Below are positions 11,671 to 63,750 of a DNA stretch of 64,000 nucleotides, piece after piece (position 1 is the stretch's first letter; every line of letters begins with the position of its first letter). A program made the position numbers and the translations under genes. The stretch comes from Paraspadella gotoi. Its lineage: Eukaryota > Animalia > Chaetognatha. The notes beneath the pieces were generated by a model, which saw nothing but the letters and a program-made list of their open reading frames with translations, was not told the DNA's origin and did no database searches. The DNA lies in the NCBI GenBank assembly GCA_051294375.1, contig CM119267.1, positions 15,726,105 to 15,790,104 on the forward strand, read 5' to 3'.

Positions 11671-14001
11671 CAATGGGGCGAGTTAAAAATTTAGAGCGAG
11701 TACATACTCAAACGAAAATTAATACATTTTTAAGTATACTTTCAATGGACAAAAAAATTTTTATATGGCTATATAGTCTAGTAATTAATTTTTTAATATT
11801 TATTTATAGATAGGAAAGGCCAAAAATTTTATAAATTTTTAATTTTAAAACCACATTGAGATAGCTGATAAAAAGTTATCTACACAAAGTATAATTCTTT
11901 TTTAATTATTTTTTTTGATAAGTAGGTCAAAAATAAGAAAAACTGTAAAAAATCCTCTTTTGATGATTTTATCAGTTTTTTTAGATTTTAAAAGCTGTAA
12001 TTATATTTCTTGTTGAACTTTATATGCTCTATCAGAATCCATCAAAAAATTGTAATATTCCAAAAGTATTTTTTTCTTTATATAGTAATATAATAATTTT
12101 AATTAGGCTAGTACCATAGAAGAAAGCATTTTTAACAAAAAATATTTTAATACTATAATCTATGATCAGTGTTTACTTGTTCAGAAAAATACAATGAGAA
12201 AAAATAATTTACGCTTTATTTCCAGAATCATAAACATAAGAGGTTCACTTCATTTTTCAAGTAGATTAAATTTAAAATTAAATTTAAAATGAAGGAATAA
12301 GTTTAAAGGAAGAAAAATCAATTTAAATTTATGAAAATTAATTATAAAATGATCTTTAAACAAAGTTAAGACAAATGAAAAAAATTATCTTTATAAAAAA
12401 TATTGGTTTATTGGGAATTTGGGATACTGTATGCAAAATCATATATTGGTTGTACGAATTTCATAGAATTTGGTTCAGTAATTTAAGAACCGATACTCGG
12501 TCAAAAAAACGGGGGGAACATTTTCTAATAATCCTATAGCTATTGGAAAGCTGTATATCTATAAACTACTATTACTATAGTTTCCTATGGTAAAAAAAAT
12601 AAAAGGACTTTCCATCTACTTATCTGATTGTACTAACCGTTTAAATAATGTAAAGACCTAAACTTTCTTCGCTGCGATTTAAAAAAAAATTAATTAGGTT
12701 GCCTCGAATTCAAAATCAATCATGTCAAAAGAATTAGATTTAATATCATGTTCTTAAAAAAACAAGATTGACACGAATTTTTCTTTCTTAAATTTGGGTA
12801 AAGTAATAACCTCCGCCGAAGTTTTTGCAAGAAACATGACGTTCAATTAAAGACAATAAATGTTAGCATTCACGTTAATTGCAGTTCGTGAGACAAAGGT
12901 ACCATTAGAATCCATAAATCAACCAAGACACTTACTTACTTAATACAAGTAAAAAATCTGGATAAATATAAATGGTAATAACATTGTCAACGACAATTCA
13001 ATTTATTTTCGATGAATGTGAGAAAGGCATTCTGGTTAATCACATCCTTGTGTTCGTATGCACCGAGTCCGTTGGGCCAAACGACAGAGAAGGAGCCCGA
13101 CTTCAAACAAGTTTTAAAAGAAGCAATCGACTCCGAGGGGCGCTTGTACGTGGATTCACCATTAACTACGTTGAACCTTCGAGAAAAAAATAAAACAGAA
13201 CTTGGATTATGACGTAAGGCGATATAACCAATTAACCATATACATTTTATATATTGATCGTTCAACGAAAGTCTCACACACTCACCAGTAATCAGATTTG
13301 TTGGTTTTCGAAAAAGCAGATATCCAAGGCTCTTGAGATGTTCGAATAAGAAGCAGACTAGTCGGCAATAAAGATCGATATTGACTAAACGGAACTTCCA
13401 CGGGAAACTGATAACACCACCTAGGCGTGCCACCACATCCTTTGACGAAAAATTAATAGTAGACGTTGACTATGATTTTATTATTGTAGTGATAGCGGTA
13501 GCCGACCAAATTTAAATTTTAATGGGAACAGCATTAAAATGTTTTTTTGCAAAAATGTTCCGAACCATGAGTAATTCGTTATTAAAATTATTATATATCT
13601 ATATAATGAAAAAATACTTTTAGGAATTATTAATTTTTTTGATGGATTCTAATAGAGCAATAAAGTTAAACAAGAAATTAATTACACTTTTAAAATTATA
13701 AAAAAATGAAAACTATAAAATCATCAAAGAGAGTGATTTTTTACAGTTTTTCAATTTTTGACCTATTATCAAAAAATAATTAAAAAAGAATTATACTTTG
13801 TGTAGATAACTTTTATAAGCTATCTAATTGTTTTAAAATAAAAATTAAAAAATTTTTGCTTTCCTATCTATAAATAAATATTAAAAAATTAATTACTAGT
13901 CTATATAGCCATAAAAGATTTTGGTCCTTTGAAAGTATACTTAAAATGTATGAAGTTTCATTTGGAAGGTTCCCAAATCAAACTTCTGATCAGCCCCATT
14001 G
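11671..14001. repeat. Dispersed inverted repeat pair (~11671-12100 vs ~13600-14001) bracketing the last two CMTR1 exons
   Basis: AAGTATACTTTCAA...TATGGCTATATAG...TAGATAGGAAAG recurs in reverse complement; outer ends CAATGGGGC / GCCCCATTG. Confidence 0.7.
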
Positions 14002-15536
14002 ACAAAGTTTGGCTCTAGTAGTGAGAATTAAATAAGCGCCGCTCACCCTTTACGACTTTTTCTGAAAAGTTTTCCTTCAGCACCGTTTTCAACTTTGTCA
14101 GATCGTAAACGGTTTTGGTCCTTATGGGTGTCAAGTCCTTGTTGGTATGTTTTGTCAAAGCGCGGGTCATGACGCGAGCTCGAGACATTCGCACGCGGTA
14201 ATCTTCTGCGCGCACATCGACGCCGCTAACGAAGAGCGCATCGATGACGTGAACTGTGGAGAATATTCGCTGACCTTTGCCTTCACCGACGCGTTCCTTA
14301 ACGATTTCTAACATAAATGTAAAATGATAAGAGAAATTTTATTTTCGAGCCAATTTATAAGTATTATACATTGAAATACAAATGAAAAATTTCGCAAGAC
14401 GTCACAACAAAAGAAAATTAATGAAAAAATCTTAAAAGCACAATGATATACATCGTTCAATATTAATTTAAAAAAAAAAGATTGATGCGATAACGAATGA
14501 TTGATGAGATAACAAACTTTTTATTGATACGATAACGAATTTTTGGTTGAAGTGATAATGAAAAAAAATTGATTGATGCGATTTATTGACTGAATGAAAC
14601 GAATTGAATGAAACGAATTGAATGAATCAAAATGAATTAAATGAAATGATATAAATTAAAAGAAATTAACTGTATGAATGAAATGAATTGAGAGAATGAA
14701 ATCAATCGAATGAAGAAAATAATAGAATTTAAATTAATTCAATTTAAATACAGAAGGTATGGCGACGTGAATAATTAGGATAAGGAGACAGGTTTAAACG
14801 GGATACATTTAATACAATGTATGTATGTACAAGGAGTTAAAATTAACAGTAATAAACGGTGAACGAGAAAGTATTTCGAGTTGTGTCTACCATCGTGAGC
14901 TTGTCCGCTTTTAAAGCCAAAAGTTGGCCCAAGTGTCCTCAGCGCAAGGTCAGTGGCTAAACAACCACCGGTTACCACGGTGGCCAGAGACATGACCCAC
15001 GTGACCTAAAGCGTCCTCCATAAAGGCTTCATATTATAAAATGTGGTACTGTGGCGAATCCTAAATTCGCCTCCCGTATAGCTTGGTGAAACTCAGCTCG
15101 TCCCATTGGCTTGGACAGCTAAGTACTCGTTCACCAACCGTGAGTTCCGGGTTCAATCTCCTCTAGGTCACGTTGGTTAAAGTGTGATGGTATCGGCATA
15201 AACACGCCAGTGACATGGGGTGGTCACTGCAGGTCCAAAGCCTTGAGCGCTCGCTGTCGGGAGATCACACATGTCCCTCCGTTGCCTATACATACCCCGT
15301 TTTTGTGACCAGAATCTGTTCCCACCAAACTACTCACGAGAATTTAATGAAATTACATTTAGAGTGTTAATGACTAAATAAATGGAACTACCGCGGCGAA
15401 TTTTGATATTCAACCCCTGACAAGAGATACAGGGCCCTGGGGGTGGACCCCTGGGTTGCCAAAAAATGCTAAATTTTTTTTTTTTTCCAAAATTTTTTAG
15501 TAGCATCAGGTGCATTGACGTTTTAAAAGGCTATTA

Positions 15537-15567
<31 letters not shown>

Positions 15568-18500
15568 TTATATCTAATATATTTATATATTATTTATAAT
15601 TTATTTAATAAAAAATTATTATCCCTTGCAAGCGATTTACATGTATAGGCGCAGCCATTGGTTTGGTATGGTATGATCTGTTATGATCAGTTAAGACAAA
15701 AATTGAAAAAAATTATCGCGATTTATCATCTGATTAGCTAAAACTTGTGATAATAAAAAAACAAAATGCGTGTATCAGTATAAAACATAACAATTTAAAA
15801 GATCTCAATGATGAAAAATCATATCTAAAAATTTTAACTTTTTATTTACTAGCCAGGGGTACACCATTTATCTTTTGTCAAGGGTTGAATATCAAAATTC
15901 GCCTCCATAATTCCATTTATATCGTCATTCGGACTATATGTAAAATTTTATAACATTCGATCGGGGAGTTTGTTGGGAACAGATTCTAAAAAATTATGAA
16001 GAATCAATCATAATTCGTATTAATTTTTATATAAAAATAAATATAATTGTTTTATAAATAAAAACAAATGCGTGTATCAGAATGAAACATGACAATTTAA
16101 AAAACCTTAATGATGATAAGTCATATGTAAGCATTTTATCTTCCTATGATTACACACTTTTTATAAGAATAAATTATAATTTGTAGTAGTTTTTAAATAA
16201 AAAATGTGACGACGACGACGTCACAAAGAAGCAATAGTAAACGATTATCTCGCCCAAGACGGGCTAAAGCCTAAGTCTGGCGAGATAAAAATCGATACTA
16301 GCTTTTAAGATTTATCATTTTTACCAGCTAACAAGAGGGTCTTTTGCGGCAATTCCAACTTAAAGCTCGGTTTGCTCCACTTAGGGTTCATTCCGTTCAT
16401 GGAATGCCCGTTCCAAACCCTGACGTCGTTTCGGCCGAGACCGAGTAAAAATACTCTATCCGCCTCGTTTTCGCGACCGGCTACGATGAAGGAGTAATCG
16501 CGAACGTGGCACAACCGAGTTTCCCACATAGCAGAGTCCAGATTAGGAGCCTAAAACGAAACGGAGGTTCTCGCAATTTAATGATAAAACTAACTATAAG
16601 GCTATTTTTATTTTCAACCTTCATCATTAAATAGTCGAATGATTCCGCGGCTCCATCATGCGACATTAATTTGGTGAAGAGATCGTATGCATCATGTCGC
16701 TCAGGTCGCTGGCGGATTTGGCTGGGAATTCGCCAAATAGCAAGGCACTCTCCACGAATATCTTTCTGTCTCGCATCGATAAGGTTGGGGTTTTGAGCAA
16801 AAGCTCTGAAAAATTATCCATTATTATGGATTAAAGTAGTCGGAAAAAACTAAGTTTTCTCACCAGAAATCAAACGCACCTGATCTTTTTGAGGTGCAAG
16901 ACCTGCAACAGTCCTAATTCGTCGTTGGACTCCCGAATATAATTGAAAAAAGCTTCATCGCCTCGAATTATTTTAGCGGGAACCACCTCAACAACATCTT
17001 TGGTGCTCGAGTCACTCATGAGCGGCCCCAACTCCTTGTTGACGTGAAATAAATATTCGTAAACGTCCTCTGTCTCCGCCCGCTTCCCTTTGCAAACGAT
17101 ATACCGCTCCGAGTTAGCCGGACGCGAGGTGACTGGCTTATGGATAGTAACATTGTCAAAGGAACGCCACATCAAGTAGACGAGGCCAACGCTGAAAAAG
17201 AAAATTTCACGTATATTAGTCACTGAAATTCTAAGTTACAATATGTATTTTGTGGGACAGTATAATTCCTTAATACCAGAATATTTAATAATAGAATTAC
17301 ATGAATTACTGAACACAAACCTAAAAGAAGTGAACAAGTCAAAAAGCTTGCAGACGAAAGCGCCCCCCGTCCGGACAATACCCATAGCAGCAATGAACTG
17401 ACACAGGTAAAGCTGTTTCGAGAGAATCTCCTGAATGTTTTCGTTTCCTTCCACCGAAAATCCACCGTCCGCCATCATGAAATGGACGCCTTTAAAAGAA
17501 GAATAAGAACTGAGCCACAGTCGGGGATCTACGTAATCGATAGAATTCCGAAACAGTCCGACATAAGACGTCGAATCGATACCTTCTCCTCCCGTTCCAT
17601 CCATAACGACTTTTCTGAGCGCCTCGAGATTCTCGGGTCTGGTGAGGTCGCCATCGCCGTCGAGGTCGTTAGTACCGGGTCGCGGGACGCCATAGTAAGT
17701 CTCGAAAAATTCGACCGGCGCCGCGTAAAAGTCGTGAAGCTTGAAATCGCAGGGACCTTTGAGAGTGAAGCCGAAACCTTTAACGGCTCCCGAGTTGCAA
17801 TGGAATCGCCGCCACAGCACGTACTTTGATAGAAAAAAAAAATTCAAAAGTATTTCAAGGTTTCAACCGACTAATTCTACTTTAAGATAAGTACCTCACT
17901 AAATCCTCCTGGACCGGCGGCGACATCCGCAAAATACAACACGTCACCGGAACTCAAAAGCTGAGTCCCGTCCTCCTTTTTGGGATTCGTGAAGAGAAAA
18001 TCGAAGACACTGTCCATGTTGGCCATTTTCATCGCCGCACGATTCTAGCGGGACAATTTTCTCATTGATTTTAGATTGATTCTATTACCAAGCCATCCCA
18101 AAACGCGATGGCTTTAATGCAATTTATTTGCTCTCGAATCCGTTTCTATTCGGCTAAATTTAACTCAGTAACTAACCTGGAAGAATACAGACTGAATAGT
18201 TTCGAAGGGGTTAGATTTAGTCCTGGCCGTCCTCATCTCTTTGTTTTCTAAATTGTCGAAAACGCTTTTGCAGCTGAGAACGTCTGCGAGAACCTTTTCG
18301 TCAACGAAGTCCGTCTCGTCACCGATGGTTCTTTTCTTAGGTCCGATTTTAAGCCACTCATGCATAGTGTCGAGGCTGAGAAAAAGGAAAAAGATATGGT
18401 AAACGTAACTGAGGATAAAACAAATTAAATTAAATTAGTCATAAAAATTGATTAAACATAAGTATTAAGTAATTTTATTTCTTTGTGTAATTTTTTCATG

Positions 18501-21500
18501 AAAATGTGAATATACTGCCAAGTAATATTAAATAGCTTTAGTTACAAGGAATATTTGTTCGAGGCACTTTCTACTGACGTGGGTATGCCCTTTGCGCAAT
18601 AAGAAATCCATTTGACATTTTCGGAAATAACTACATCTTCCTCCGTCCAAGTCTTCTCGAAATTCGTTTCGAATCCTGTCGGTTCAACGCCAAGGCCACG
18701 ACGACCCTAGTCCCAATTGAAGCCAAAAAAGACAAAAGTTTTATTTTTTTTCTGGTATTACTGGGAAAACAACTTAATCGTTGTGCTACTAAAAAAATCT
18801 AGCATCATACCTAATTACCTAGCGATCTTTCTAAAAATTACATATCTGATACTTGACTATTTTAAAAGACAAGAACTGTACTCTAATGTGTTGCGCCGCA
18901 GTGACCGTCTTATCACATAATAAACGTCTTATGGTTATTCAATTATCTGCAAAGTTTCAACATAAATCACCAAATATTATACAAAAGACGAAATTATACT
19001 TTAGCCGACCGGGGTTTTGGCGTCTTTTAAAAAACTACTTCAAAATATTTTTTAAAAAATTTAAAAAAATTATTATTTAATTACCTTAATCCTAAAAATA
19101 TTTTAAAAAATCTTAAAAGCATAAGGATCGTCGCAATCGCATGATAAAAATCTGGATTGACGACAAATTTTAATACTAAAAAAAATAAAATTTAAGAAAA
19201 AAATAATAATTTATAAACAGAAAGAAAAATTTTATTTTGCGATTGTCAATTAAAAAAAATAATAAAGTACTGAAGAAAATTAAAGTGACAGTTTCTGAAA
19301 AAAAATAAAAAAAATGAAAAGTTTTTTTTTGTCGTTGTCAATTGTCATTGTCAAATAAACTGATTATCAGACGCAGCCCCTGAGAAAATAAAACGAAATA
19401 AATACCCGATATTGCGATAGCAAAATGATAAAATGTACAAATGCGAGTTCAATCCTAATTCAATTTTTTTTATAATAAAAACGCAGAGAGAGAGAAAAAA
19501 AAAGAAAGAAATCAAAAGGCAGCAGATGCAGCAGGAGAAAAGAGAGAAAGAGAGAGAGCCCCTTTAGAGCCAGCTGCAGACTCGTTTTTTTTTCCCTATG
19601 AATCAGTGACTAGGGAAAAGAGAAAGGGAGAGAGATATATAATTAAAAGAGAAAAGAGAGAGAAAAAGAAATATAAAAAATAATAACTGTCCTGACTCAA
19701 TTTTAAGCACATCGATGAGAAGCTGTATATAAATTTTCAGGTTCATACACCCAAATTTAACTATAAAAAAGGCGATCTATAATTTGGAACGCCGACGACA
19801 ACAACGGCGACGCCACTTATGTGCAAAACCACAGTAAAATCGTCGCAAACGCAAAGCGATTGCGATGATAAAAATTATTACTTAATTACCTTAACCCTAA
19901 ACCCTCTTAACCCTAACTACCCATAACCATTACCCCTAAACCTTTGGGAGCTCAAATGATTTGAACAAAGACGACGACGACGACGACGGAAACGACGACG
20001 AATACAACGACGTATACAACGACGAAGACGACGATGAAGTCTTTGTACTTTGTGACCCGTAGTACCGTAGTGGTCAATAAGAATGACCTGTTTTACCTGA
20101 ACCTTAATGATCTTGTTATGGCTGACCTTTTTTCTCAGCCAATGTAAATACGAGTTGTTATTGTTATTATTTTTATCTTTTTGGCTTTTTACTCTGTTTT
20201 TGATAATATACGTTTTTTCTTCATCACGAAAAACACGCCTTGTGGCAGCAAGACTTAAAGCTGCCTAACTGCTGTCCGTCCTCAGCCTCGTCTCAATGGC
20301 TGAGCAGGCTAAATCATCTCATTCCATCCGTGCATCCCGGGTTCAATCCCTGGGTATCCCGGTTCTGGCTTAAATGTGACGGTGCCGGTATAAACATGCC
20401 AGTGACAGGAGGCGGTCACTGAGGGTCCGCAGCCCCTATGCCAGTTGGTGAGATACCCCGCGCCCCGGGTATCACAGGCTATCCTCCCGTTGCCATAAGT
20501 GGTGAGCCCGACTCTCGAACACGCAACCGCTGCGCACCGTGCGCCCACGCTTACGTCGCTTAGGGTATGCATATCACGCCTATGCCCTACTTCTCTGGTA
20601 ACGCTCCAGACTCGCTCGCTCGCTCGCCCGCTCGCTCTCACTATGGCAATGAGATCAAAACCTTCTCTCAGACATCTCCTCAGGATTGAGGCCCCTGTGG
20701 AGAAGTCTGGTGGGGGGATCCTGTGGCAGCAAGACTTAAAGCTGCCTCACTGCTGTCTGTCCTCAGCCTCGTCTCAATGGCTGAGCAGGCTAAATCATCT
20801 CATTCCATCCGTGCATCCCGGGTTCAATCCCTGGGTATCCCGGTTCTGGCTTAAATGTGACGGTGCCGGTATAAACATGCCAGTGACAGGAGGCGGTCAC
20901 TGAGGGTCCGCAGCCCCTACGCCAGTTGGTGAGATACCCGCGCCCCGGGTATCACAGGCTATCCTCCCGTTGCCATAGCCTCGAAATTTTCTCCAAATTC
21001 TCGTTTTGAGTCACCGCAAACCCCCCTAACTCCGATCGCTGAAAGTAAAATTAACCCAAAATACATGCACCAAAATCTTTTAATGATACCTTACTAGTCT
21101 GCCAAGTATAAGTTAAAAAAACTCAGAATTTATTGCGACAAAACTTATGAAATTCTAAGTCACGTGATCGCTTTTTAAGATCACCTAACTGCACAAGCAT
21201 GATATATATGCACGTTAAATGTGCCTAACTTTCCTACTAAATTTATGATGTATTACCCGTGTTATGAGCAATTTTAACTATGAGATAAATCGAAAAACAC
21301 ACTGAAACACCGACCGACCCAAGTTTCTCCGCGGTGCAATAGTTATAATATAATTGCATAATGCTTGCTACGTTACCCGACCCAATAGGAACCTTATGAG
21401 TTGATTCTTTGACGATCTCCGTTCGCCCTTGCTGGTACTTCCCGAGCCCTTTCCCTTCTTCATATCCCATTTTGGCCATCATTTTGGCTCCTTTTTCGGA

Positions 21501-23886: not shown

Positions 23887-26800
23887 TTAGTTGGCAAAGT
23901 GTTTCTTTCCGTAATCGCTAATCACGCAGACGTGGTTGAGGTCGCGATAATTTTCGTTATAGTCGAATGCGCAGCCCACGATAAAAACGTCAGGAATTTC
24001 GAATCCGACATAATCTATAAAGGGGGTAAAAAATTCCAACTTATTTTTTGACCGATGTTTTATAGCAGTCATAAGCATAATTTCCGAAAAAAGGAATAAG
24101 GTAAAATGCATCATTATTAAAAAAAAATTAAATCTTAAAAGTATAGTGATCTTACCAGACGTTACTATCAAAGAAAATTAATAAAAAAATCAAAAAAAAA
24201 ATAGTAATTGATTTATGTAATAGTAATTGTTAGATGTAATAGTAATAGATTGATGTAATAGTAATAGATTGATGTAATAGTAATTGATTAATGAAATAAA
24301 AATTGATTGATATAATAATAATTGTTTAATTTAATAATAATAATAATTGATTGATGTAATAATAATTGATTAATGTAATACTAATTGATTGATGTAATAA
24401 TAATTTATTGATGTAATAATAATTTATTGATGTAATAATAATTTATTGATGTAATAATAATTTATTGATGTAATAATAATTTATTGATGTAATAATAATT
24501 TATTGATGTAATAATAATTTATTGATATAATAGTAATTTATTGATATAATAATAATTTATTGATATAATAGTAATTTATTGATATAATAGTAATTTATTG
24601 ATGTAATAGTAATTTATTGATGTAATAGTAATTTATTGATGTAATAGTAATTTATTGATGTAATAGTAATTTATTGATGTAATAGTAATTTATTGATGTA
24701 ATAGTAATTTATTGATGTAATAGTAATTTATTGATGTAATAATAATTTATTAATGTAATAGTAATTTATTTATGCGATGATAACCAATTATTGATGCGAT
24801 GATAACCAATTATTGATGAGAAGATAACCAAATATTGATGCGATGATAACCAAAAATTGATGCGATAATAACCAAATATTGATGCGATGATAACCAAATG
24901 ATTGATGCGATGATAGTCATTCATTGACGCTTTGAGTCATTAATCGTAAATAAAACAAACGCGTATATGAGAGAGAGAGAAAAAGAAAGAGAGAGCGAGC
25001 GAAATATAATTAAAAGTCCAGCCGCTGCAGAGCTTTTAACTCGTTTTTAGACGAATCAGAAGAGGTAGCGACGGAGAAAAAGAGAGACCAAGCGAGAGCG
25101 ACATAATTAAAAGAGAGTGACATATAATTTTTAGCTTCCTATGATATCACACTTTTATAATAATTACTCGTAATTCGTCATAATTTTTATATAAAATATA
25201 GATATAATTGTTTTGTAAATAAAACAAACAAATGCGTGTAGCAATATGAAACATGTGAACCTAAAAGATCTTGCTGATTAAAAGCTATATCTAAATTTTT
25301 AGCTTCCTATGGTTACACACTTTTATAATTTTTAATTGTAAAAAAGCGTAATGACGACGACGACAACGGTCAAAAGAAGCAGAAGCGAACTAAAAAGAAC
25401 ATACCTGGAACGTATCCGATGCTTTTAGGCGTTCTCTTTAACGCCAGTGAAACAACTTTTACTGAAGCAGGTTCTACTTGCTTTAATATCTCCAATAATT
25501 TAATCATCGTTCGTCCTGTGAAAAATTAATAATTAATAACTTAGAGCCTGAGATTTATTTTAGTTAATCATTTAGAGAGGAAAAGCGAGAATGGAGATTC
25601 GTAGAAGCTCAATAAGCTGTCCTTATTGACATTAAAGAGTGTGGTCAATTTTGATTCCAAACTTTCACTTCACCCTACTGGTCATTGGTAGATTGTCCAA
25701 TAACTAATTATGGCAACGGGTAGACGTGTGAGATGCCCGGAGTGTGCTCCGGGCTTTTGACCTGCAGTGACCACCCCATGTCACTGGCGTGTTAATGCTA
25801 ACACCATCACAGTTAACCAGCGTGACCGTGGGGGGATTAAACCCGGAACTCACAGTTTGAGAACGAGTACTTAGCAGTCCAAGTTAATGGGACGAGGTGA
25901 GTTTCACCAATCACCAAGCTATACGGGAGGCGATTTTATGATTTGCCACAGAACACCTATGGCGCCGGAGGTAGCACGAGCTTCTCCCAAACCAAAGGAC
26001 TCGGGTTCGCGCCCTGCTTATTCACACAAAGCGCCACGGGGCGTCTAACCCACCAGTAGTGACGGACTACAGCCGGATCCGAAGTTCTGGATCTTGTGTG
26101 CAACGGACCGCGACCTGCTCGCGGCATAGTCTTCCACAATCACTCTCCTTTCGGTTGCACCTGTATCGACGATGTCTTCGACGACCAATATGTGTTTCCC
26201 CCTCAGGCGATGAAGCTTGTCTCCACCAACTACCTTGACTTCGCCGGTCGACTCATCATTCTCGTAGCTTTTAAGCCTGATGAAGTCCATTTTGACTGGC
26301 ACGCTTGCATTGGGAGAGTATGAGTTGATTTTTTCTATCTTTTTCAACAAATCACCGAAAAATCTGAGAATGTCAACAAAATTGTTTTTGCAATGATGGA
26401 GCAAGTTGAAAACATTGTGGGAGCGAACCTGTAAGCACCCTTTAACGTGCATAAAGCGAGAACTGATTCGCCCGGAGTATTGTTGAATACGCTTAAGTAA
26501 TGTCGGTGAATGTCAAAGGCGAGTTTTTCGGTTCTGTCATCAAGCAAACCCGCCGGAATCATCACTACGTAACAAAAAAATTATTTGTAATGAATGGATC
26601 AGCACCGTAATGCCCTGACCCAACGGGAACCAAGCAAGGCGGGTGATGAAGCCTATATTGTTAACCCGGCGGCAGAAGTCTGTCACAGAGCGAGATAAAA
26701 GTTATTCAATCGGTTTGGGTTTGCTCGTGACTATTCTTATAATTATATTCTTATCTGATTCTATGACTTTTAAAAGGCGATAGACCGACGTGAGTCTATT

Positions 26801-28321: not shown

Positions 28322-30503
<2,182 letters not shown>

Positions 30504-39600: not shown

Positions 39601-41018
39601 CAATCATTCCGGTCCTGAAATAGTCTAATTTGTTTACTTTAAAGTTTAAAGTAAATATTTTTTACTTGGGTTATAGAATGCCGTAAGTTCGCTCACCGGA
39701 TTTCGGGACCTTTCGTGTCAAGAGCGATAGCAACGGGGCGAGGAGGGTCCAATTGCGACGCCGCCTCACGGGCGTTGGCAATAGTCGTAGCATGATATTC
39801 ATGGGTCCCATGAGAAAAATTTAACCTCACGATGTTCATACCTTTTGGAAGAATTTTTTTTCTCATAAAGTTATCGTTACAACTTACATAAAATGTACTT
39901 GCCCGGTGGCCGCCAAGCAGTTAAGTAGGACGGGACGCTTAACCCAAATATATAGCATAGGGCTAAAGCCAGGTCCTAAGCTCTGGGACTGCTAATTTAT
40001 ACTACATATATTATAATAAATTATTCTCTCTTGAATAACTATTGAATATCAAATAACCCTAATAAAATTCAAAAAATGCTTTAGAAATTCCCGCCAAGAA
40101 AGCCGTTTTGAATTCTTTTTACTGTGCTGCACAAAATTACTTGGTAAAACGATCACATTTCCGTTATAACTTTTACATACAAAATTACCGACAAAATGTT
40201 TACAATAATTTTTATTATAGTATTATGATAATATCGGCATTACTCATTTTTAGAAATGTATATAATAATCATACTGTTGGGGGGGATGTATGATGGACTA
40301 AAATCCACCAACCGTTCATCAGCGGCCATTGGTGCAGGAGGCAAGTCATTCGCCTCCCAACCCAAAAGTCCGGGGTCCTAGCCTGGTGGTCACCTAGCAG
40401 TTAAGAGGGACGGGGTGCTTAACCCGCCTGTAACACGATGTTACAGCCTGATCCGAAGCTCAGGGAGTGCTTATAATGAACGGTTCTATCCCTAACTCAT
40501 AACAATTATTACTGTCTATTCAGTTGTTTATTTATCGAAGTTAAAAACAGGCGATGATATAAAAACATTTCCAAATTTTTTGTAAACAATCCAAATGAAT
40601 AATAAAATGACGCTAATACACAGTGACTTAACACTTAACATCACCAATAAATTAACCATAAAATAATGCTTAAGCCATGTGCTGACTCCGCTTTCCTTGC
40701 AGAACAATGGAGGAGCCGAGTTTTTAGTTTTAAATGATGGTGTAAATATAATATTATACAAATTACAGAATCTATTTTAATTATTTTTTCTAAAATTTTT
40801 ATTTTAATAAACTCACCGGCATCCATAAGCTTCTTCAACATTTCAACAGATTGCGTCGCTGGACCAATGGTACAAATAATACTGGCCTTTCTTGCAATGG
40901 CTGGGGAAGAATCAATGTCCAGCAAACACATATGTTCAAGGGCCGAATTTGCATCAGCAGCGTCAAGCTGCTGCGGATGGATAGCCAAATCGGACTCCAT
41001 GGTCGCAGAGAAGCTCAT
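36624..41018 (-). CDS. PKM: Pyruvate kinase (multi-exon)
   Basis: [68 protein letters not shown]; last exon [17 protein letters not shown]. Confidence 0.95.
36892..37439 (-). mobile_element. Helentron/DINE-1-like element, family H1
   Basis: Same termini and internal blocks as 19110-19869. Confidence 0.55.
39901..40032 (+). mobile_element. Divergent, 5'-truncated family B copy
   Basis: GCCCGGTGGCCGCC then GCAGT...CCAGG-TCCTAAGC-TCTGG-GACTGC. Confidence 0.55.
40287..40522 (+). mobile_element. Family B copy in a pyruvate kinase intron, preceded by a G7 tract
   Basis: Near-identical to 54274-54508; twister-like core 40397-40470. Confidence 0.7.
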
Positions 41019-42161: not shown

Positions 42162-45100
42162 TTAATCCTTTTTTTCAACAAAAAAGGGATTGGACCAGAA
42201 AACTTCAACATTAAAATTCTGTTTTTTTAATCGACACAAAAACTTTTCCTTAAAGTGTTCGTCAACAAAATCGATCGCGATACGACGCGAATTTAGTTTA
42301 GCTCCATGAAGGTATTCCCTAGCCATGAGTGCTTCAGTTTGCGATTCAAAAGTAATCAGCGCTTGACAGTTGTGATGGTCAAAAAACGTCCTGACGGGAC
42401 CGACTTGTTGAAAAAAATGAACCAAGTCCGTATGAGTAGTATGCGGTAATACATAATCCACACAGAGGTGACGCGATAAATACGGGTAAGCGAAGGTAAC
42501 CCTAGAAGCAGCTTTTCTTGATTCCCTTTCAACAGCTTGAAACGCAGAATTAGCGAAGAAGTAGTGGACGATAAGTTCGACTTGATATCGCTCCAATTTC
42601 ACCAAGGGCCCGAATTCTGAGAAAAAACTTATTAATTCAGCATCACTAACATAAGGATCAACTCTCTGAATCCAAACTTTTTTGGAAGCTTTAACATTAA
42701 ATTCTGAGCGTTCTTCACTGGAACTATGCGTTAGCTTATCCATGCAAATTAAATGAAAATTGGGGTAAAGAGTAAGGAAGTTGGCAGTCAAATCAACTGC
42801 TCGAGAAACAGAAACGGTTTCCACAAAAGTGATTATTATATCACGCTTGTCGATACTGCTGTGTATTCTTTCAATTTTGCCACAATTTCCGAAGTCGCGA
42901 TGTATGCATATTTTTAACCTCGCCTCATCTTGAAACGGATAACCTTGGACCAAAACTGTCCGATTCAATGGATGACTTTTGGCTGAATCAGTAGACTTCA
43001 TATTGCCAACGGAATTGTTTGTCAGAATTGGTGGGTTTGTAAATTGAAGAGATGATCTTTGAACTTCTTGGGCGAGTGACAGAAGAGGGATAGAACTATT
43101 TTCTACACTGTTCATTAATTTCGAATCCGCATTACTATGAAAAAGAATATTTTCAGATAGTGTATTTTGGTTAATATTTACGGAGAGCTTATCGGAACCA
43201 AAAACTTTACCTTTAAAATAAGGAATTTCATCTTCGGAAATAAAATCAACTTGAATTTTCGAATTTATGAGAAGGGAACCTCGGCTTTCCACTAGGGCAT
43301 GAATAGCATTGTCTTCATTTTCGAAAAGAGCAACAGCGTAAGGTTTACTGTTATCGCAAATTACTTCATTTGGGCGAGAACCAAATTTAGAGAAAAATAC
43401 ATGTACCAATTTACAACTGTTGTTTGGAACCGGATACAGCCAGAGGGCTTTCGTTGGATTTGGTTTGTCTAATTGTATCCTAATTTTATGTCCATCAAGA
43501 TACATTCCGTCCAATTCCCTCGCAGCGGAAAGTGCACTGGAAATCTTATCAAATATAATTAAAGCAGATTGTGATCCATGTTGCAAATCTATTCTTATTA
43601 TGTTTCCATAAGGTTTAAAAACGCGACGAATTTGACGTCGCAATGTATTGATATTCAAATTATGAATGGTTATTTTACGCGAAGCATCTTGATTATATTC
43701 GTCTATGCAATCATAATTATTTCGTGGTCTTTTATCCTGAAATAATTTCTTAAATTCTTCAGTAACATAATCAATTCTAATACCGAAATAATTAGTTTTT
43801 TTAATACTTTCAAACGCCATGACGGACTCGTTTTGGTCACAAAACGTAAGAACGCCATGATCTTGATTACAATCTAAGTTTTTCACTGGTCCAAATTCAC
43901 TTAATTTAATCCCAATATTATCAGCAGAGTAACTTCCAACGTTCCCAATCCACAAATAAATACTACTTTTGTTAACTGCTGGCTTCAAATTGCCATATGG
44001 GAGACCATTAGTTAAAAGTTTAGACACTGAAATTTCATTTAGAAAATACACTAAAGCATATTCATTAAATTTATCAACATGAAAGACGTTGCCATACCTC
44101 TCGAATATGCACTTGGTTTCGGCAGAAGAACATTCAGGTTTTAAGCCCTGTACAAATAATTTTCGAGTAGGCGTTATTACTTTTAGGACTGTCGAAGGTA
44201 TATTAAAAAGCTGAATATTCTGTTCTTTTTTATCATGAGAAATCATGTCGATATGTAATGTGTGTCCAGGGGCTAACTCCATATCCCTTAACTTGTCCAC
44301 CGCAAAAAAGGCTACAGCGATATTTTTATATTCAACAACACTCACATTTGCTTTCGCATCAAATACAGTTCTCATAACGTCTCCAAAAGAGTGGATAATA
44401 TTTAAAAATATTTCTTCAGAAATGGTAGCAGGAATGTTACTAATCCAAAGTAAATTTCCAAAATCTTCCATGCAAAATTCGACATTTATCTGGGAACCCA
44501 TCAATTCGGAGTCATTTGCGTTCGCCACAGCGGCGAACGCCGATTTTATGTCTGCATAATAGATATATCCTCTATCTAATGCCATATTTATCGGTTTAAT
44601 CTCAACGGCAGTAATAGTGCCATAAAGATCAAATGCATTTTTAAGCTCGGTCTGGGAAACCCCCGGCGGAATAGGATAAATTTTAATAACTCGAGAAATT
44701 TCAGCCAATTTTGTAGATTTCTGGACAATATTTTTTAGCATTTTCATTTGAGTTTCACTCGGTTTTTTACCTTGAGTACCATAAGAGAGCTTTAAAATTT
44801 CTGAACCCAAGCGTTTTCCATTCATGTACTTTATAATTTGAGCTACAACGACAGGATTTTCAAAGAAAATGAAGACCATCTTCGATGAGACTTTATTCAT
44901 TTGATCCAAAAGTTTCATTTTAACATTCCGTATTTCTCCGAAGGAACTAAAGATTTCCCGGATCTCCATATCAGATATACCAATGTCGATTCGAGAAATA
45001 TGCAAACAACTAGTTGCATTGCTAACATCTACAACAGTTTCAATATCCATATTCAACATGGATGGTGTTAACGAGGCTGAGGATGAAGTCATTGAATCCA

Positions 45101-46840
45101 TTAATGGTTTTAATGACAAAGTTCCCCTATCTGAGAGATTACCCTTTTTTTCAATTGATACCGAATTTTTTTTTAGGTTCGATTGACGAGATCCATTGAA
45201 TTTGTCATTTTCCTTATTCAATCTTCCCAATTCCTTAGTTTCATCATATTTTACACCGCTTTCATCAATATTCTTTCCGTTCACATCGGCTCTTTTCGCT
45301 ACAGGATGAGCTCCGAGAGAAAATTCCTCCATGCTGTTGTCAGAGTCTGTCACATATTTCTCCTTGAATAAATCTTCGTCGCTTTTGTCGAACTTTCCAT
45401 AAAAATGAGCCAAGAACCCCTCAGAAGTATAGTCCGCCAGAAAAGTCATTCCGCGCCACTTAGATCCGTGAAGAGTATGGAATGCGTTCATGGAACTTTC
45501 GATCGATAAAAAGGTTATCAATGCCTCCGGCCTGCACGGGGCTATCTTCAGGTCCCCGACGGGTCCAAATTGGGAAACGAACAACCGCTCTAATTCAGAT
45601 TCGTTGGGTCGCGGTTCCGGGGGATTAAACCTAATCCAGATAGTTTTAGAGGTTCGCTGTGGTGGAGCAAATGATAGTTTCAAATTTTCATAATTAAACC
45701 GACGGGAAAGTGGACTTGCGATTGCGACCACAACCGATGAAATACTCTCGTACTCGATCGTAATAGAAGAGTTGCCAGTGTCGCCGAAATCGCAACTTAA
45801 TATTGTGCCAAATCGGACGAAGAACGACCGAAGCGACTCGGGATCTGGAGGTCTCGCGAAATTCTCAATCAGCAATGTCTTGGTTGCCCACGGATGGCTC
45901 TCATTCATTGGCATGTTTTCGGCTTTAGCTCTTTGTGATCGCGTCAAGCAAAAAATAGATTTTTCATTGCAAGTGGAATCCGCTTGGCTAGAAATTCTAG
46001 CCCTTTTTGCCGGAGAAACGTTATCCTTGCTCTGCGAGTCCGGAAAATCCGCTTCATTCGGCCGTGATCCGGGAGAAGACTCACGAAACCTATTGTAGTC
46101 AATTACCGAAGCTGGCTTTTGTCCCTCGTCCTTTGCCAAAGTCTTTGAGGACCGTCCTGAGTGAGTGGCGTCTGACGTGCGTGTTCGAGCAAAGCTTAGG
46201 GAAAGAGTAGTCACTGATGAAGGTGGATGAACGGGTGAAGAAATTGATTTGGATTTGGTGTCCGCGGATAAAATGAAAGGGAAAGGCGCTTGGCGCGATT
46301 GTGAAAGATCCTGAGAATGAGATTGAGAACCTTTGGTGGTCTGGGACAACGAAATATCTGGAACGACGTCGAGCGGTGGTATTCGAAGAGGAGACGGATC
46401 GTCCTCGGTAAAGAAACAAGGGTATTTTAACCGTTCCGATTGCAGATTTTGACTAATAGATCGAGATGCCGAATGAGTTTCGTCGGGGCAAAAAATTGAC
46501 AAATTCTTGGCAAAATGAAAAATAGGAGAATGAAGAGATGTTGGTAATAATGAGGGCAGGGGTAAAGAAGGCGGGGGTAAAGAAGGAGGCGGCAAGGCAG
46601 GCGGTGGCAGGGAAGGGGGACGAAGTGGAGGTGGGCACGGTAGAGCTGGAGCTACCGAAATAGGACTGTCATCTTCGACGGATGGAGATGGATTTGAAAT
46701 TGTACTCGTCTGTGAAATTTCTTCACCTCCGTAATTCTTGAGTTGTTGTGAAGCGAGGTATTTGTCACGAAAAATCCCCCGCGAGAACCAGATGGGTTTT
46801 TCTGTAAGACAAATTTTAGATTGCCAGTTACAAAAGAAAC
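42162..46840 (-). CDS. Uninterrupted ORF with ~12 tandem RRMs resembling SPEN RRM3-RRM4 pairs; Pro/Ser-rich N-terminal part; true start uncertain
   Basis: 1564-codon open frame. Repeats such as SRKITIHNL...ALIIFDKISSA...LDGMYLDGHKIRI...PTKALWL...YAVALF...RGSLL..KIQVDF. No SPOC domain visible. The listed start codon lies inside a repeat. Confidence 0.75.
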
Positions 46841-46842
46841 AA

Positions 46843-47601
46843 GTTTGAGCAAACAATGTCGGATCTGCTCACGATCATTATCGATAATTAATTAATTCAA
46901 GTTAATTAATTAATTAGGCAATTAATTAATTATACATTTAATTAATTAATTTGATCCGAAATATTTGTTTTGATTTATTAATTGACCGATTAATTATTGA
47001 TTAATTAATTGGCTAATTTACTAATTAATTGACTAATTATTTAATTAATTAATAGATATTGCATTTACATTTAATATAAAAATAAAAAGAAGCATAATCA
47101 ATTAGTGAAACAGGTTTTTTGTTTTTTTCCATTTAAACTCATTTCTACTCAAACGATTCCATCGAAACTTTATTTCCAGCTTAATCACACACTTTCCAAC
47201 CTACATACAAAATTTTAGGTCAATCACCCCATCCACTCATGAGTAATTGGTGTTCAAATAATGAAATATATTTTTTTTTGGTTTTTTTTTATTTAAACTC
47301 ATTTCCCTCGGACGATTCCATCGAAACTTCTGATGAGCGGGGTTTTCCGTCTCTTACTCACTCATGTCCAACACTTCATATCCAGCTCAATCACACATTT
47401 CCCTACCCAGACCCAAAATTTCATTTCAATCCATCCATCCAATCACGATTAATTGGTATTTTTTGCTAAGGTGGAACAGACGGACAGACAGACATTTTTT
47501 TGCATAATTTATCATAATTTGATGTTCTGACATGATATTGAGGGGGCGAACCGACGGACCGACAAAGTGAATTATCGAGTCGGGATAAGCAGATCCGACT
47601 A
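46843..47601 (-). mobile_element. Helentron/DINE-like element, family H3 (second copy begins ~63920)
   Basis: GTCGGATCTGC / GCAGATCCGAC subTIR; TAAT-rich interior; near-identical start at 63920-64000. Confidence 0.5.
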
Positions 47602-49180: not shown

Positions 49181-51961
49181 TTAATTTTGCTTCATAGCAA
49201 TCCTTTTGTCGCGTTCTTCGGCCACTGACATTCTCACGCCTTTGCCTTCCGGAAGTGAAATCCATTGTTTGGACCCTTTCCCAATGGTGAAAATGTAGTT
49301 GAGCCTGAGAGTAAAAATTATTGAAAATTCGCGAAATTCACACTAAATGATACATGAAAGTTAACGCTAAGTTTAGAAACCTGGTGGCGAACGAATGACC
49401 GGCGGCGTCTTTAACGTGAACGATGTCGAAAGATCCAGGATGTTTCTCTCGATGCATTATGGTGCCGACCCTGCCCAAGTTACGTCCCCCTGTCACCTAT
49501 CGCACAATTAAAGTAAATACATAAACTTCAAATTGAAGGTTATAAAAAATGCGAAAAAAATGATGGCTCATCGTCGCACCATGCAAATGTTTCCAGATTC
49601 GAACTTAATGAAGTCGGTTATTTTTCCTGATGCAATGTCCACTTTGAGACAGTCGTTCGCTTTTATCAACGGATCAGGATACCTAAAGAACGAGAAAAAA
49701 TCTTAAAAGCAATCGCATTAAAAAAATATTGACCAATGACAAACTTTGATACTCAAAAAATCAAATTTGATATCGTAAAACGAAGTTTTATAAATAACAA
49801 ATCTGGCTTAATATATCAAAAAAATACAAGGGTTGTATGAGAGAGCTCGTTTTTGGACGAATCAAAGAGGCAACCGACTGAGAGAAAGAGAGAGAGCGAC
49901 ATATACAGAAGGCTTCATATTATAAAATTAGGTACTATGCCTATGGCAACAGCCGAGTTGCCTGTGATGCCAATTGGAATGGGGCATTTCACTGTTGGCT
50001 TTAGGGGCTACCGACCCTCAGACGTCTTCTGTCACTGGCGCGGTTACCCTAGCACGGTTTCGCTTTTTTTTCGCAGGAACAGGTTGAAAACTAGAAGTTC
50101 TCTCAAATAAATAATGGTTAAGTAACAGTTAGAGAATTTGAAAATAAAAATAATTTTTAAAATTTATCTTATTGATTAGCGCACGGAAGCGTTAAAGATT
50201 ATTTTATTACTATATAAATTTTAAAATTTTTTTTTAAATTTTTCAAGTTTTTTTAATAGGTTCTAGTAGAGCTTTAAAAGTTAGATAAAGGTTATTAATA
50301 CAACTTTTAAATTTTTTTTGTTTTATTGATAAAAAATTTAAAAAACCATAAAATTTAGCTGATGATGATGATGATGATAATGATGATTTTTTAAAGTTTT
50401 CTATTTTTAACCAATTTATTGTCAAAATTTTAAAATATTGTAGTACTAACTTTGATTTAACTTTTCAAGCTCTATAGGAATCCATTATTAAAAAATAATT
50501 TTTTTTAAAAAAAATTGTCATCTTATATATTAATAAATATTTAAAAGCTTCAGTGCAACAACCCAATGAACTAATTAAAAAAGTTACATTGAAAATCGAT
50601 TTAGTAATAGAAAATTTTTTTGAGAGAACTCGAAGTTATAAAAAGTGTTCAATTTTGGCTCGCCTTACTGTGGAGTGTGGATGGAACGCAACACTTAGGA
50701 TGGTGCGTTCCCCCAATGGGATTGGATGAACGATGGTTTAAGTGAGGCAGTGTGAATATACTTCCACAGTACCCGTTTTTTGGGACCAGAACACTTTCCG
50801 ATAAAACTACTGGACCAAATTAATTGAAATTTGGTATCATGGAGAATTTCAATATTTGACCTCTGAGCCGAGATATATTGTTTTGTTTTGAACGGTTTCA
50901 TAGACGTTTACTCTTCCACAAAAACTTAATTATTACCACAAAAATATTAGTTTACTTTAATTTTCAGCTTCCTGAACATCAGCGGTTGAAGTTAGATTTA
51001 AATTGGAAGTAAAACGATGAACCATGCATCTTCAAACCATGCTTAAGTATTAAAAATTCATCAATTTTAGTTCTAAAATGTTTTTTATATTTTAAAACGT
51101 CAATGAATATGATGCTAGCAAAAAATTATAAAAATTGGAAAAAACATTTTTTTAGCTTTTTTTGGTTGAATTTCAAAATTCGCCCTAATAACGTCATTAG
51201 GTCGAAATTCAATGGGGTAGTTTGGTGGGAACAGATTCTGGTCACAAAAAACGGATACCTCATTTTATAATATGAAGCCTGTAATTAAAAAAAAAGATGT
51301 ATAAATAGAAGAAATTTGTTTTCTTTATATAAAATGTAAACGAATCACATTTAATTTATCACCTCATCAGTTTTCAAGGACCTTGATGATAATATACATC
51401 TAAATTAAAAAATACAAATAATATAAAAAAGCGATCTATAAATTGGAACGCCAACGAAGACGCCATTTATTGGGGCCATCATTCCATAATCGTCGCAAGC
51501 ACAAGCGAATAACTTTACCTAATGGTCCGTCCATCCGTGGTGATCAAATAAGGTATTCCTTTTGGGCCAATCGACACTTTTTTAACGATGCACAACTTGT
51601 AAGATGCTTCCTCTTTAGAAATGCGATGCACCTTGTATCTTCCCTTGACATCGTAGACGAGGCGAAAATTCTCGCCAGTCTTCTCCATTTGGACCACATC
51701 CATGAATCCGGTGGGGTAAGTATGATCGGTGCGGACACGTCCGTCCACCTTCACTAATCGCTGGGCCAGGATGTTTTTGACCTCTTGGTATGTGAGGGCG
51801 TACTTCAGACGATTTCTCAGAAAGAGTGCAAGCGGAAGACACTCTCTAAGCTTGTGCGGACCCGAGGATGGACGCGGAGCGTAGCAGCCACCCAATTTGT
51901 CAAGCATCCAATGCTTGGGCGCCGCCACGCGCTTCATATGCTTTCGAGGACCTCGAACCAT
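49181..51961 (-). CDS. RPS4: 40S ribosomal protein S4 (4 exons)
   Basis: [22 protein letters not shown]...DGRTIR|YPDP...[11 protein letters not shown]...[15 protein letters not shown]. Confidence 0.97.
49906..51281. mobile_element. Same MITE family, with nested insertions
   Basis: TIRs at 49906 and 51261-51281; further TIR copies near 11638, 15022 and 31856. Confidence 0.7.
49942..50063 (-). mobile_element. 3' part of a third twister-LTR subfamily, degenerate
   Basis: Minus strand: GCGA-AA-CCG-TGCTAGGG-TAA-CCGC-GC-CAGTGAC...AGGG-TCGGTAGC-CCCT...ATCACAGGC...GTTGCCATA. Confidence 0.7.
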
Positions 51962-53755: not shown

Positions 53756-54785
53756 TCAGGAGTCCACCTTGACGGGAGCTTCGGGGCGGAATAATTTTAT
53801 GTGGACGGCCGAGTTAAGACGTGTCTGGACTCTTGGCAAGCGATCCAAATCCTAAAGAAAATCCCCCGACGAAATCAATAATGACTCCTTCTCGTAACAG
53901 CGTCCGCGTAACAATAAAAAGTAACCTTATAGACAATGTCGTCAACTAGGGAGACCGTAGCCGTCCTGACGTGGAATTCGACGGAGCCACGGTTATTTGA
54001 TTTGAGAGCAAGAGCAATATTAAGGGCGCGCTTGATAGCTACGCCAAGCCCGTGAACGTAGACAATTTCGCCGAGGTCCAGCAGTTTTTGGCAACGATTC
54101 AACTGTACCTACAGAGTACGATCAGAAGGGGGTTTTTAATTCAATTTATCGAAATTAAATTTTGAATAGTAAAGTTTATTTAAGGGAAAGTGGAGATTTT
54201 GTTTAAAAAGTACTACTTGCATGGATTATTATGGAAAATTACAAGCGATGTTCTGAAAACACGCATAGATTTTATGGTGGACTAAAATCCACCAACCATT
54301 CATCAGCGGCCATTGGTGCCGGAGGCAAGACATTAGCCTCCCAACCCAAAGGTCCGGGGTTCTAGCCCGGTGGTCGTCTGGCAGTTAAGAGGGACGGGGC
54401 GCTTAACCCGCCTGTAACACGGTGTTACAGCCTGATCCGAAGCTCAGGGACTGCTTATATTGAACGGTTCTGTCATTAACACTTATCAATAATTACTGTC
54501 TCTTCAATTTATTGTAAATAATTATCAGACTTGACACAAAACCATAACTACTTGGGGTGATGATTATATAAAAATTGTCTTCTATTGCTACTTCAGAAGC
54601 AACCCTTATTACATCTCATAATTGTTAACGCAACGCAACGCAGATACCTTGAAGTGGGTTTTTCGAGTGACGTAAACGTCGTTGTGTTCTCGAGGAAAGG
54701 AACGCGGAAGCCGTTTTCGAAGGAGAAATTCTTCTCTTGAAATTACATTATTCACCGACTTTACAGACCGTTTCGTTTCTGCCAT
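53756..54785 (-). CDS. POP7: RNase P/MRP subunit Rpp20 (3 exons)
   Basis: LRKRLP...NDVYVTRKTHFK|VQLNRCQKLLD..EIVYVHGLGVAIKRALNIAL...TATVSLVDD|..RLNSAVHIKLFR. Confidence 0.9.
54274..54508 (+). mobile_element. Family B element: tRNA-like head plus twister-like RNA (most complete copy)
   Basis: tRNA-like 54306-54377 (GCGGCCA/TGGTCGT acceptor stem, CCGGG-GTTCTAG-CCCGG T arm), then GCAGT-TAA-GAGG-GA-CGG-GGCGCT-TAA-CCC-GC-hairpin-CCTGA-TCCGAAGC-TCAGG-GACTGC (54381-54454). Confidence 0.7.
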
Positions 54786-63534: not shown

Positions 63535-63750
63535 ATGGACTAAATTCCACCAACCGTTCATCAGCGGTCATTGGTGCAGGAGGCAAGTCATTCGTCTCCC
63601 AAACCAAAGGTCCATGGTCGCCTAGCAGTTAAGAGGGACGGGGCGCTTAACCCGCCTGTAACACGGTGTTACAGCCGGATCCGAATCTCAGGGACTGCTT
63701 ATATTGAACGGTTCTGTCACTAATTCATAACAATAATTACTGTCTCTTCA
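63535..63750 (+). mobile_element. Family B copy with deleted B box and L4 change AAGC>AATC
   Basis: Aligns to 54274-54508; core 63625-63698. Confidence 0.7.

Follow-up and report, generated by a model that had tools for sequence, protein, structure and literature searches.

Stem P1 of a type-P5 twister ribozyme is an intramolecular hairpin. In the window analysed here, a stretch of 64,000 nucleotides from the chaetognath Paraspadella gotoi (contig CM119267.1, positions 15,726,105 to 15,790,104), twister-like motifs occur in which only 6 or 8 nucleotides separate T1 from the UAA cleavage motif, and one short element carries such a motif in each of its two LTRs. How, if at all, can P1 be formed in these motifs? 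A sequence-only reading of this DNA had pointed out that most of the linkers are self-complementary, and had proposed that the two LTR twisters exchange P1 strands or, alternatively, that P1 is simply dispensable. The features considered below are collected in Table 1.

Table 1. Features of the A1 element and P1 linkers of the other twister-like copies (window coordinates)
Feature	Position	Strand	Basis or remark
5′ target-site duplication GCCT	20237-20240	+	sequence
5′ LTR, 257 nt, TGTGGCAG...TTGCCATA	20241-20497	+	98% identity with 3′ LTR
A-box-like motif	20297-20308	+	pattern match; putative function
B-box-like motif GGTTCAATCCC	20340-20350	+	pattern match; putative function
Twister left arm: P5 5′ strand 20365-20369, P2 3′ strand 20374-20377, GA 20378-20379, T1 3′ strand CGG 20380-20382	20365-20382	+	
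P1 linker TGCCGGTA	20383-20390	+	self-complementary, including two G-U pairs
Twister right arm: UAA, P2 20394-20397, T2 GC 20398-20399, P3 20400-20421, P4 with loop UCCGCAGC 20422-20437, P5 3′ strand 20440-20444	20391-20444	+	
PBS-like segment starting TGG, 2 nt downstream of 5′ LTR	20500-20512	+	sequence
Polypurine-tract-like G run upstream of 3′ LTR	20709-20718	+	sequence
3′ LTR, 256 nt	20722-20977	+	second twister copy at 481 nt offset
Second P1 linker	20864-20871	+	identical to 20383-20390 and its predicted partner
3′ target-site duplication GCCT	20978-20981	+	
First T4 run past A and B boxes	20987-20990	+	possible pol III stop
Linker TATCGGCA	15191-15198	+	family A2, single LTR-like copy (15046-15286)
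Linker TGTTAGCA	25796-25803	-	family A2; UAA replaced by UUA
Linker TGCTAGGG	50047-50054	-	decayed family A3 copy; T1 pair swapped (CGG/CCG)
Linker GGCGCT	54398-54403	+	family B1
Linker GGTGCT	40414-40419	+	family B1
Linker GGCGCT	63642-63647	+	family B1
Linker GACGCT	39934-39939	+	decayed family B1 copy
Linker GGCGTC	26040-26045	+	family B2
Linker AGGCCT	28690-28695	-	family B3; perfect palindrome, no P3; carries the sole Rfam match

Layout of the twister-like motifs and their host elements

In family A1, the upstream segments ATGT-GA-CGG and the downstream segments TAA-ACAT-GC-P3-AGGG-TCCGCAGC-CCCT follow the order of the Rfam Twister-P5 model (RF02684), namely P2′, GA, T1′, P1, UAA, P2, T2 and P4/L4, and the termini likewise lie in P5. 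The UAA cut motif, the GA before T1 and the L4 pattern U-NNN-N-A-GC, by which a twister is recognized, are intact at 20383/20864, 15191, 54398 and 40414, while the copy at 28695 carries the T2 variant GU/AC and the conserved motifs have decayed in five other copies. Pairing was counted over 10 copies, omitting the second A1 LTR and drawing the P2 of family B with one bulge; pairs were kept at 28 of 30 positions in T1, 17 of 20 in T2, 30 of 34 in P2 and 28 of 30 in P4, with double changes (CG/GC and GC/AU swaps) in each helix. This covariation of T1, T2, P2 and P4 makes the twister assignment sound as a structure. The motif is best described as twister-like with a type-P5 layout, whose self-cleavage is a prediction from its sequence; by the U/A site given in PMC8501958, the cut would fall between 20391 and 20392.

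Several properties set these motifs apart from known type-P5 twisters. The intramolecular hairpin is missing: P1 consists of 6-8 nt without a loop, for which a hairpin is unfavourable, in contrast to the long P1 hairpins (6-11 bp) in all seven Twister-P5 matches among 20 viral loci scanned (L012 being counted as like L010). P3 is present in 10 of the 11 window copies, and no copy reaches the Rfam gathering score. At that threshold, the Rfam twister model gave no match in the window, the sole Rfam match being a weak one to Twister-P5 at 28661-28703 (E 0.32). No hammerhead was found among the Rfam matches of the window, and the LTRs lack in this respect the hammerhead by which LTR retrozymes are defined.

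The A1 element combines two LTRs, a 4-bp target-site duplication, PBS- and PPT-like segments and a short internal region, as expected of an LTR retrozyme or TRIM. Within the window this paired-LTR architecture is seen for family A1 only; the A2 and A3 copies have the LTR 3′ end in common and resemble solo LTRs, and the family B copies are single. The element sits between the G-patch and FtsJ exons of a minus-strand gene, which we take to be CMTR1-like, and is probably antisense within an intron of it. A1 is a large dispersed family with 2644 matching contigs in public run X1, and family B1 has 4883 matching public contigs, in both cases a depth and not a copy number; the A1 contigs diverge into unrelated flanks at 20240, 20498 and 20722, which are LTR ends. 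In the copy studied here, the PBS-like segment deviates from the family majority at 20510 and 20514, so this copy may prime poorly.

Each A1 LTR carries A- and B-box-like motifs upstream of its twister, and tRNA-type motifs of this kind precede the twister in families A and B (20297-20350, 15107-15160, 40330-40375 and 54310-54370). The A-box consensus used is that of a pol III type 2 promoter, and the motifs suggest that the repeats hold an internal pol III promoter. ARAGORN called no tRNA gene in the window. There is no T4 run inside the A1 element (20241-20977), the first one starting at 20987, just beyond it.

Other arrangements in the window were also recorded. The B1 twisters at 39934 and 40414 lie 480 nt apart, near the 481 nt of A1, and were considered as an LTR pair; this was rejected, as they are 62-72% alike, with an AT-rich middle and no PBS. 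A G run lies upstream of the 40289 copy. At 25712-26150, a minus-strand family A2 copy stands back to back with a plus-strand family B2 copy, just upstream of the B2 A-box-like motif, and one of them was possibly inserted into the other. Moreover, the window holds an uninterrupted open reading frame of 1568 aa with many RRM domains (42162-46868, minus strand) in a genome that is otherwise intron-split, as well as a 19-nt AT-rich minisatellite and several MITE-like elements with long inverted ends (24100-24900; 15311-15987; 11755-13922).

Self-complementarity of the P1 linkers

Descriptor scans, together with an HMM in which the linkers were masked, identified 11 twister-like motifs with nine distinct linkers of 6 or 8 nt in the window, TGCCGGTA and GGCGCT each occurring twice; 17 other rows of a relaxed scan, which did not have the full motif set, were removed by eye. 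All six linkers named in the sequence-only reading lie in the register that it gave, between T1 and UAA, with 8 nt in family A and 6 nt in family B. Its statement that UAA follows each linker holds except for the TGTTAGCA copy (25803, minus strand), which has UUA. The scans added three linkers to that set: GGTGCT (40414, plus strand), AGGCCT (28695, minus strand) and TGCTAGGG (50054, minus strand).

Over the nine distinct linkers, 28 of 31 self-pairs are complementary, the expectation being 0.44 per pair, which bears out the view that most linkers are self-complementary when G-U pairs are allowed. Complementarity extends to the inner two pairs (17 of 18), which are impossible within one strand, and includes the central pair in every linker (9 of 9: CG five times, TA twice, TG and GC once each), with three Watson-Crick types represented. 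Column shuffles matched the observed pairing in 13 of 20,000 trials, a p-value that is optimistic because the copies are related and relatedness was left out of the tests; by a hand estimate, three independent double changes alone would give about 0.04. Taken singly, a linker does not reach significance: among the 1680 permutations of TGCCGGTA, 11% have pairing just as complete (11-46% across linkers). Of the 4-mers in the surrounding sequence, 9-15% satisfy both inner pairs. A mismatch is present in three of the nine linkers, which counts against the palindrome being needed for P1. The homoduplex energy of TGCCGGTA lies within the best 2.2% of permutations. Judged on these counts, the set of linkers is palindromic beyond chance and one linker alone is not. 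A short palindromic stem conserved by covariation, which characterizes the dimer-cleaving type of hammerhead, is found here too.

The palindrome might nonetheless have no current role, each LTR twister cutting as a monomer and the linker being what is left of a P1 hairpin minus its loop. A hairpin that loses its loop would leave a centred palindrome automatically, and cleavage near the wild-type rate without P1 (PMC5408937) together with tolerated P1 flaws (PMC11662667) would fit such an origin. Perfect central tetramers, however, differ among four lineages (CCGG, CTAG, GCGC and GGCC; chosen after looking), and the six subfamilies are only 44-67% alike. Different but palindromic centres (CG, TA, GC) in lineages this divergent would require that the loop was deleted exactly on several separate occasions, or that compensatory changes followed. 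In addition, 31 of 34 P1 self-pairs have survived over 10 copies, with decay no faster than in T1, P2 and P4. Dispensability as stated in the sequence-only reading thus accounts for activity, but not for a centred palindrome kept across such lineages, and we regard a functionless relic as unlikely. The two linker lengths, 6 and 8 nt, are exactly one pair apart, and the symmetry axis lies midway between T1 and the cut site.

In public A1 contigs, 20383 T>A is found in 41/25/10 and 20390 A>C in 30/21/8 contigs, and one contig reads AGCCGGTC, in which the outer pair is broken and the inner six letters are kept; T>G at linker position 1 and G>A at position 2 also occur (scored site by site). Positions 3-7 show no variant at 3% or more among the matches listed, and most of the young LTR is equally conserved. 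The spread of an A1 subfamily whose outer pair is broken is a point in favour of the relic. In B1 contigs, 54402 C>T, by which a G-U pair is retained, is the one linker variant that reaches 1%, and four P3-loop positions vary at 1-44%; since one early change can yield such a share, the pattern lends slight support to conservation.

CUUG-type loops have a pyrimidine first and a G last. The loops that could be drawn in family A linkers start and end in the same way, and the outer pairs are mostly complementary, so the linker could be read as a minimal monomeric P1 in which one or two base pairs closed by a structured tetraloop are stacked on T1. Where such a hairpin can be drawn, it is predicted at +2.9 to +5.6 kcal/mol, with an ensemble probability of 0.00, which upholds the earlier claim that the linker is too short for an ordinary hairpin. 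The loops are neither GNRA nor UUCG, the complementarity of the central adjacent bases (9 of 9) would go unexplained, and the outer pair is the very one that is broken in the A1 subfamily. A minimal hairpin is accordingly a very improbable account of the linkers.

Predicted pairing between the two LTRs

In folding models that omit the pseudoknots T1 and T2 and co-transcriptional order, the latter of which would favour the local 5′ fold, the unconstrained MFE of 20285-20990 pairs 20383-20390 with 20864-20871 in the P1 register (p 0.49-0.51; local hairpin p 0.00). The same MFE forms P2 (20394-20397 with 20855-20858) and P5 (20440-20444 with 20846-20850) across the LTRs and keeps P3 and P4 local; the 5′-LTR cleavage site thereby attains its secondary structure, the 3′-LTR site being misfolded there. 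When both sites are enforced, the swapped fold lies at -7.7 kcal/mol relative to the local one, a value reached by one of 40 permuted linkers (mean -0.2, sd 3.5), although a palindrome by its nature brings part of this gain with it. The ensemble gap to a twister-ready fold is 3.9 and 4.7 kcal/mol for the swapped arrangement, 9.2 and 9.7 for the local one, 8.3 for a solo LTR and 6.6 for the circle. In the solo-LTR and circle MFEs, GGUA-U of the linker pairs with AUGCC and the cut site is trapped in a hairpin. Modelled as two separate strands, A1, B1a and B3 gain 8.6-11.4 kcal/mol from the P1 duplex, and A2a gains nothing; relative to two freely folded monomers, the dimer has a clear advantage for A1 only (-6.9), the values for B3 and B1a being -0.5 and +3.9.

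The palindrome likely serves pairing between two copies of some kind. Pairing of two RNAs could, in principle, have ends other than cleavage. GC-rich 6-nt loop palindromes initiate RNA dimers in retroviruses, and the linker might by this parallel bring two copies together, as a kissing or dimer-initiation site, for packaging in the particle of a helper retrotransposon, or might hold cut ends for ligation, with cleavage remaining monomeric. Linker homoduplexes of -6 to -11 kcal/mol for A1, A2b, B1a, B2 and B3 would suit such a role, which would also cover family B, seen as single copies. Yet a dimerization site gives no reason for a palindrome exactly in the P1 register at both lengths, and the circle MFE does not expose the linker but engages it in local pairs. 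We consider this possibility improbable.

What we favour, if with restrained confidence, is that P1 forms by pairing between the linkers of the two LTRs. Strand exchange between two LTR copies, as the sequence-only reading had suggested, is supported by covariation at pairs impossible in one strand and by the folding of the real two-LTR stretch. The premise of two LTR twisters stands for family A1 with its paired LTRs and falls short for family B, whose copies are only single. In such a swap, 20383-20390 would pair with the same eight letters of the other LTR to form P1, and in each active site the left arm would come from one LTR and the right arm from its counterpart. Cleavage of the 5′ LTR would then take place in an ordinary type-P1 twister, with the entire internal region as its P5 "loop". 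Both P1 strands being one duplicated sequence, P1 is possible only if that sequence is palindromic. We infer pol III-type transcription that starts in the 5′ LTR and ends at the T run beyond the element; two cuts would release a 481-nt unit (58% GC), to be ligated into a circle as in plant retrozymes, and a helper element would reverse-transcribe the circle, as modelled for those retrozymes in PMC4918200. Without a P1 partner, the twister in the circle would cut more slowly and the template would stay intact, and the local hairpin (GGUA-U with AUGCC) is predicted to be inhibitory both in the solo LTR and in the circle.

Whether cleavage depends strongly on P1 pairing, and whether solo LTRs would be attenuated as the sequence-only reading proposed, is a separate matter, about which we are less sure than about two-copy pairing, since P1-less twisters cut near the wild-type rate, the A1 subfamily breaks the outer pair and family B is found only as single copies. 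A P1-less env22 twister is described in PMC5408937 as cleaving near the wild-type rate, PMC6154101 likewise reports near wild-type cleavage of a P1-less twister, and PMC11662667 describes a large screen of natural twisters in which P1 flaws were without effect. Furthermore, a tether of 6-8 nt is probably long enough for strain-free closure of the monomer, which counts against dependence. Other descriptions point to a role for P1: cleavage without it is termed inefficient in PMC8501958, and according to PMC5052635, the cellular output of a twister can be switched about 6- to 10-fold by an aptamer sequence at a closed P1. The P1-less construct, as published, had a truncated free end and not a short closed tether. 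Moreover, a twister crystal with intermolecular dimer artifacts (PMC5408937) indicates that twisters can dimerise. Obligate dimer cleavage is a prediction.

Relation to known ribozyme elements

The A1 element has much in common with plant LTR retrozymes as described by Cervera et al. 2016 (PMC4918200): a non-coding LTR-internal-LTR layout, a 4-bp target-site duplication, PBS- and PPT-like segments, one ribozyme per LTR, a GC-rich unit and solo LTR-like copies. It differs in carrying a twister where the plant elements have type III hammerheads, in a unit of 481 nt versus about 700 nt and in the A/B-box-like motifs of its LTR, and its circles are predicted. Retrozymes with LTR, PBS and PPT are those described for plants in that paper, while metazoan retrozymes are characterized in PMC7761336 as having none of the three; the element studied here, from an animal with compact genes, has unlike them LTRs with PBS- and PPT-like segments. 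Retrozymes seem promoterless according to PMC7761336, and a promoter in a plant retrozyme LTR is reported in PMC9695139.

With respect to mechanism, a close parallel is provided by the dimeric type I hammerheads of amphibian retrozymes and Penelope-like elements, for which PMC6765202 and PMC7229834 describe a palindromic stem III and dimer cleavage. In both systems, a stem is cut down to a short palindrome able to form between tandem copies; the ribozyme class is different, and dimer activity was measured there and is predicted here. The A1 element, in our best reading, would be LTR retrozyme-like, with a twister working like these hammerheads, and as such would resemble a dimeric hammerhead retrozyme while falling outside that family as defined. 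Stem III of the hammerhead belongs to its core; twister P1 is reported to be dispensable, so dependence may be weaker in the twister. Meanwhile, the Perere-3 T-variants of Schistosoma (PMC8501958) are also retroelement-borne twisters with altered P1. They have the type-P1 form and belong to an autonomous non-LTR element whose target site supplies the 5′ strand of P1, and the available text of that paper never mentions a palindrome or dimer.

Exact-pattern scans for short-P1 type-P5 twisters covered viral contigs (17, 47, 45 and at least 120 loci), metagenomes (at least 115 loci) and prokaryote genomes (73 loci). After pairing filters, no convincing short palindromic P1 form was found (7 rows, 8 rows and 0 of 165 loci among the matches listed), the patterns being narrow and eukaryote genomes few in these collections. 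An HMM of the window copies gave nothing below E 0.1 against 252 loci. Two viral loci, L011 and L015, were examined as short-P1 type-P5 twisters and rejected, as each consists of two type-P1 twisters in tandem (L015 110-209 and L011 130-229). Another viral type-P5 twister (L007 148-200, minus strand) has as its P1 a 7+1+7 GC inverted repeat that is almost loopless. In a literature search, we found neither a twister that is dimeric or has a palindromic P1 nor an LTR retrozyme built on a twister, though the sequence lists of the primary twister papers may contain such forms; the available text of PMC10085705 and of bioRxiv 2022.07.19.500677 holds no such twister.

Taken as a whole, the proposal is tentative: A1 may represent a family of animal LTR retrozymes that is present in many copies and has a pol III promoter of its own and a natural two-copy twister, in which the palindromic P1 makes cleavage conditional on the presence of both LTRs in one transcript, so that full elements would be cut to unit length and solo-LTR transcripts and circles would be spared. 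The twister would then have converged on the dimer switch of the hammerhead and kept it through several compensatory changes. If true, it would be a natural twister gated by the pairing of two copies, and such a twister, able to sense copy number, would be useful as an RNA part. It would also be a non-plant retrozyme of the LTR type whose ribozyme is not a hammerhead, and would explain simply how a circle that carries a ribozyme escapes self-cutting. Finally, it would explain why selection should act on P1, which natural twisters conserve although they can do without it in vitro.
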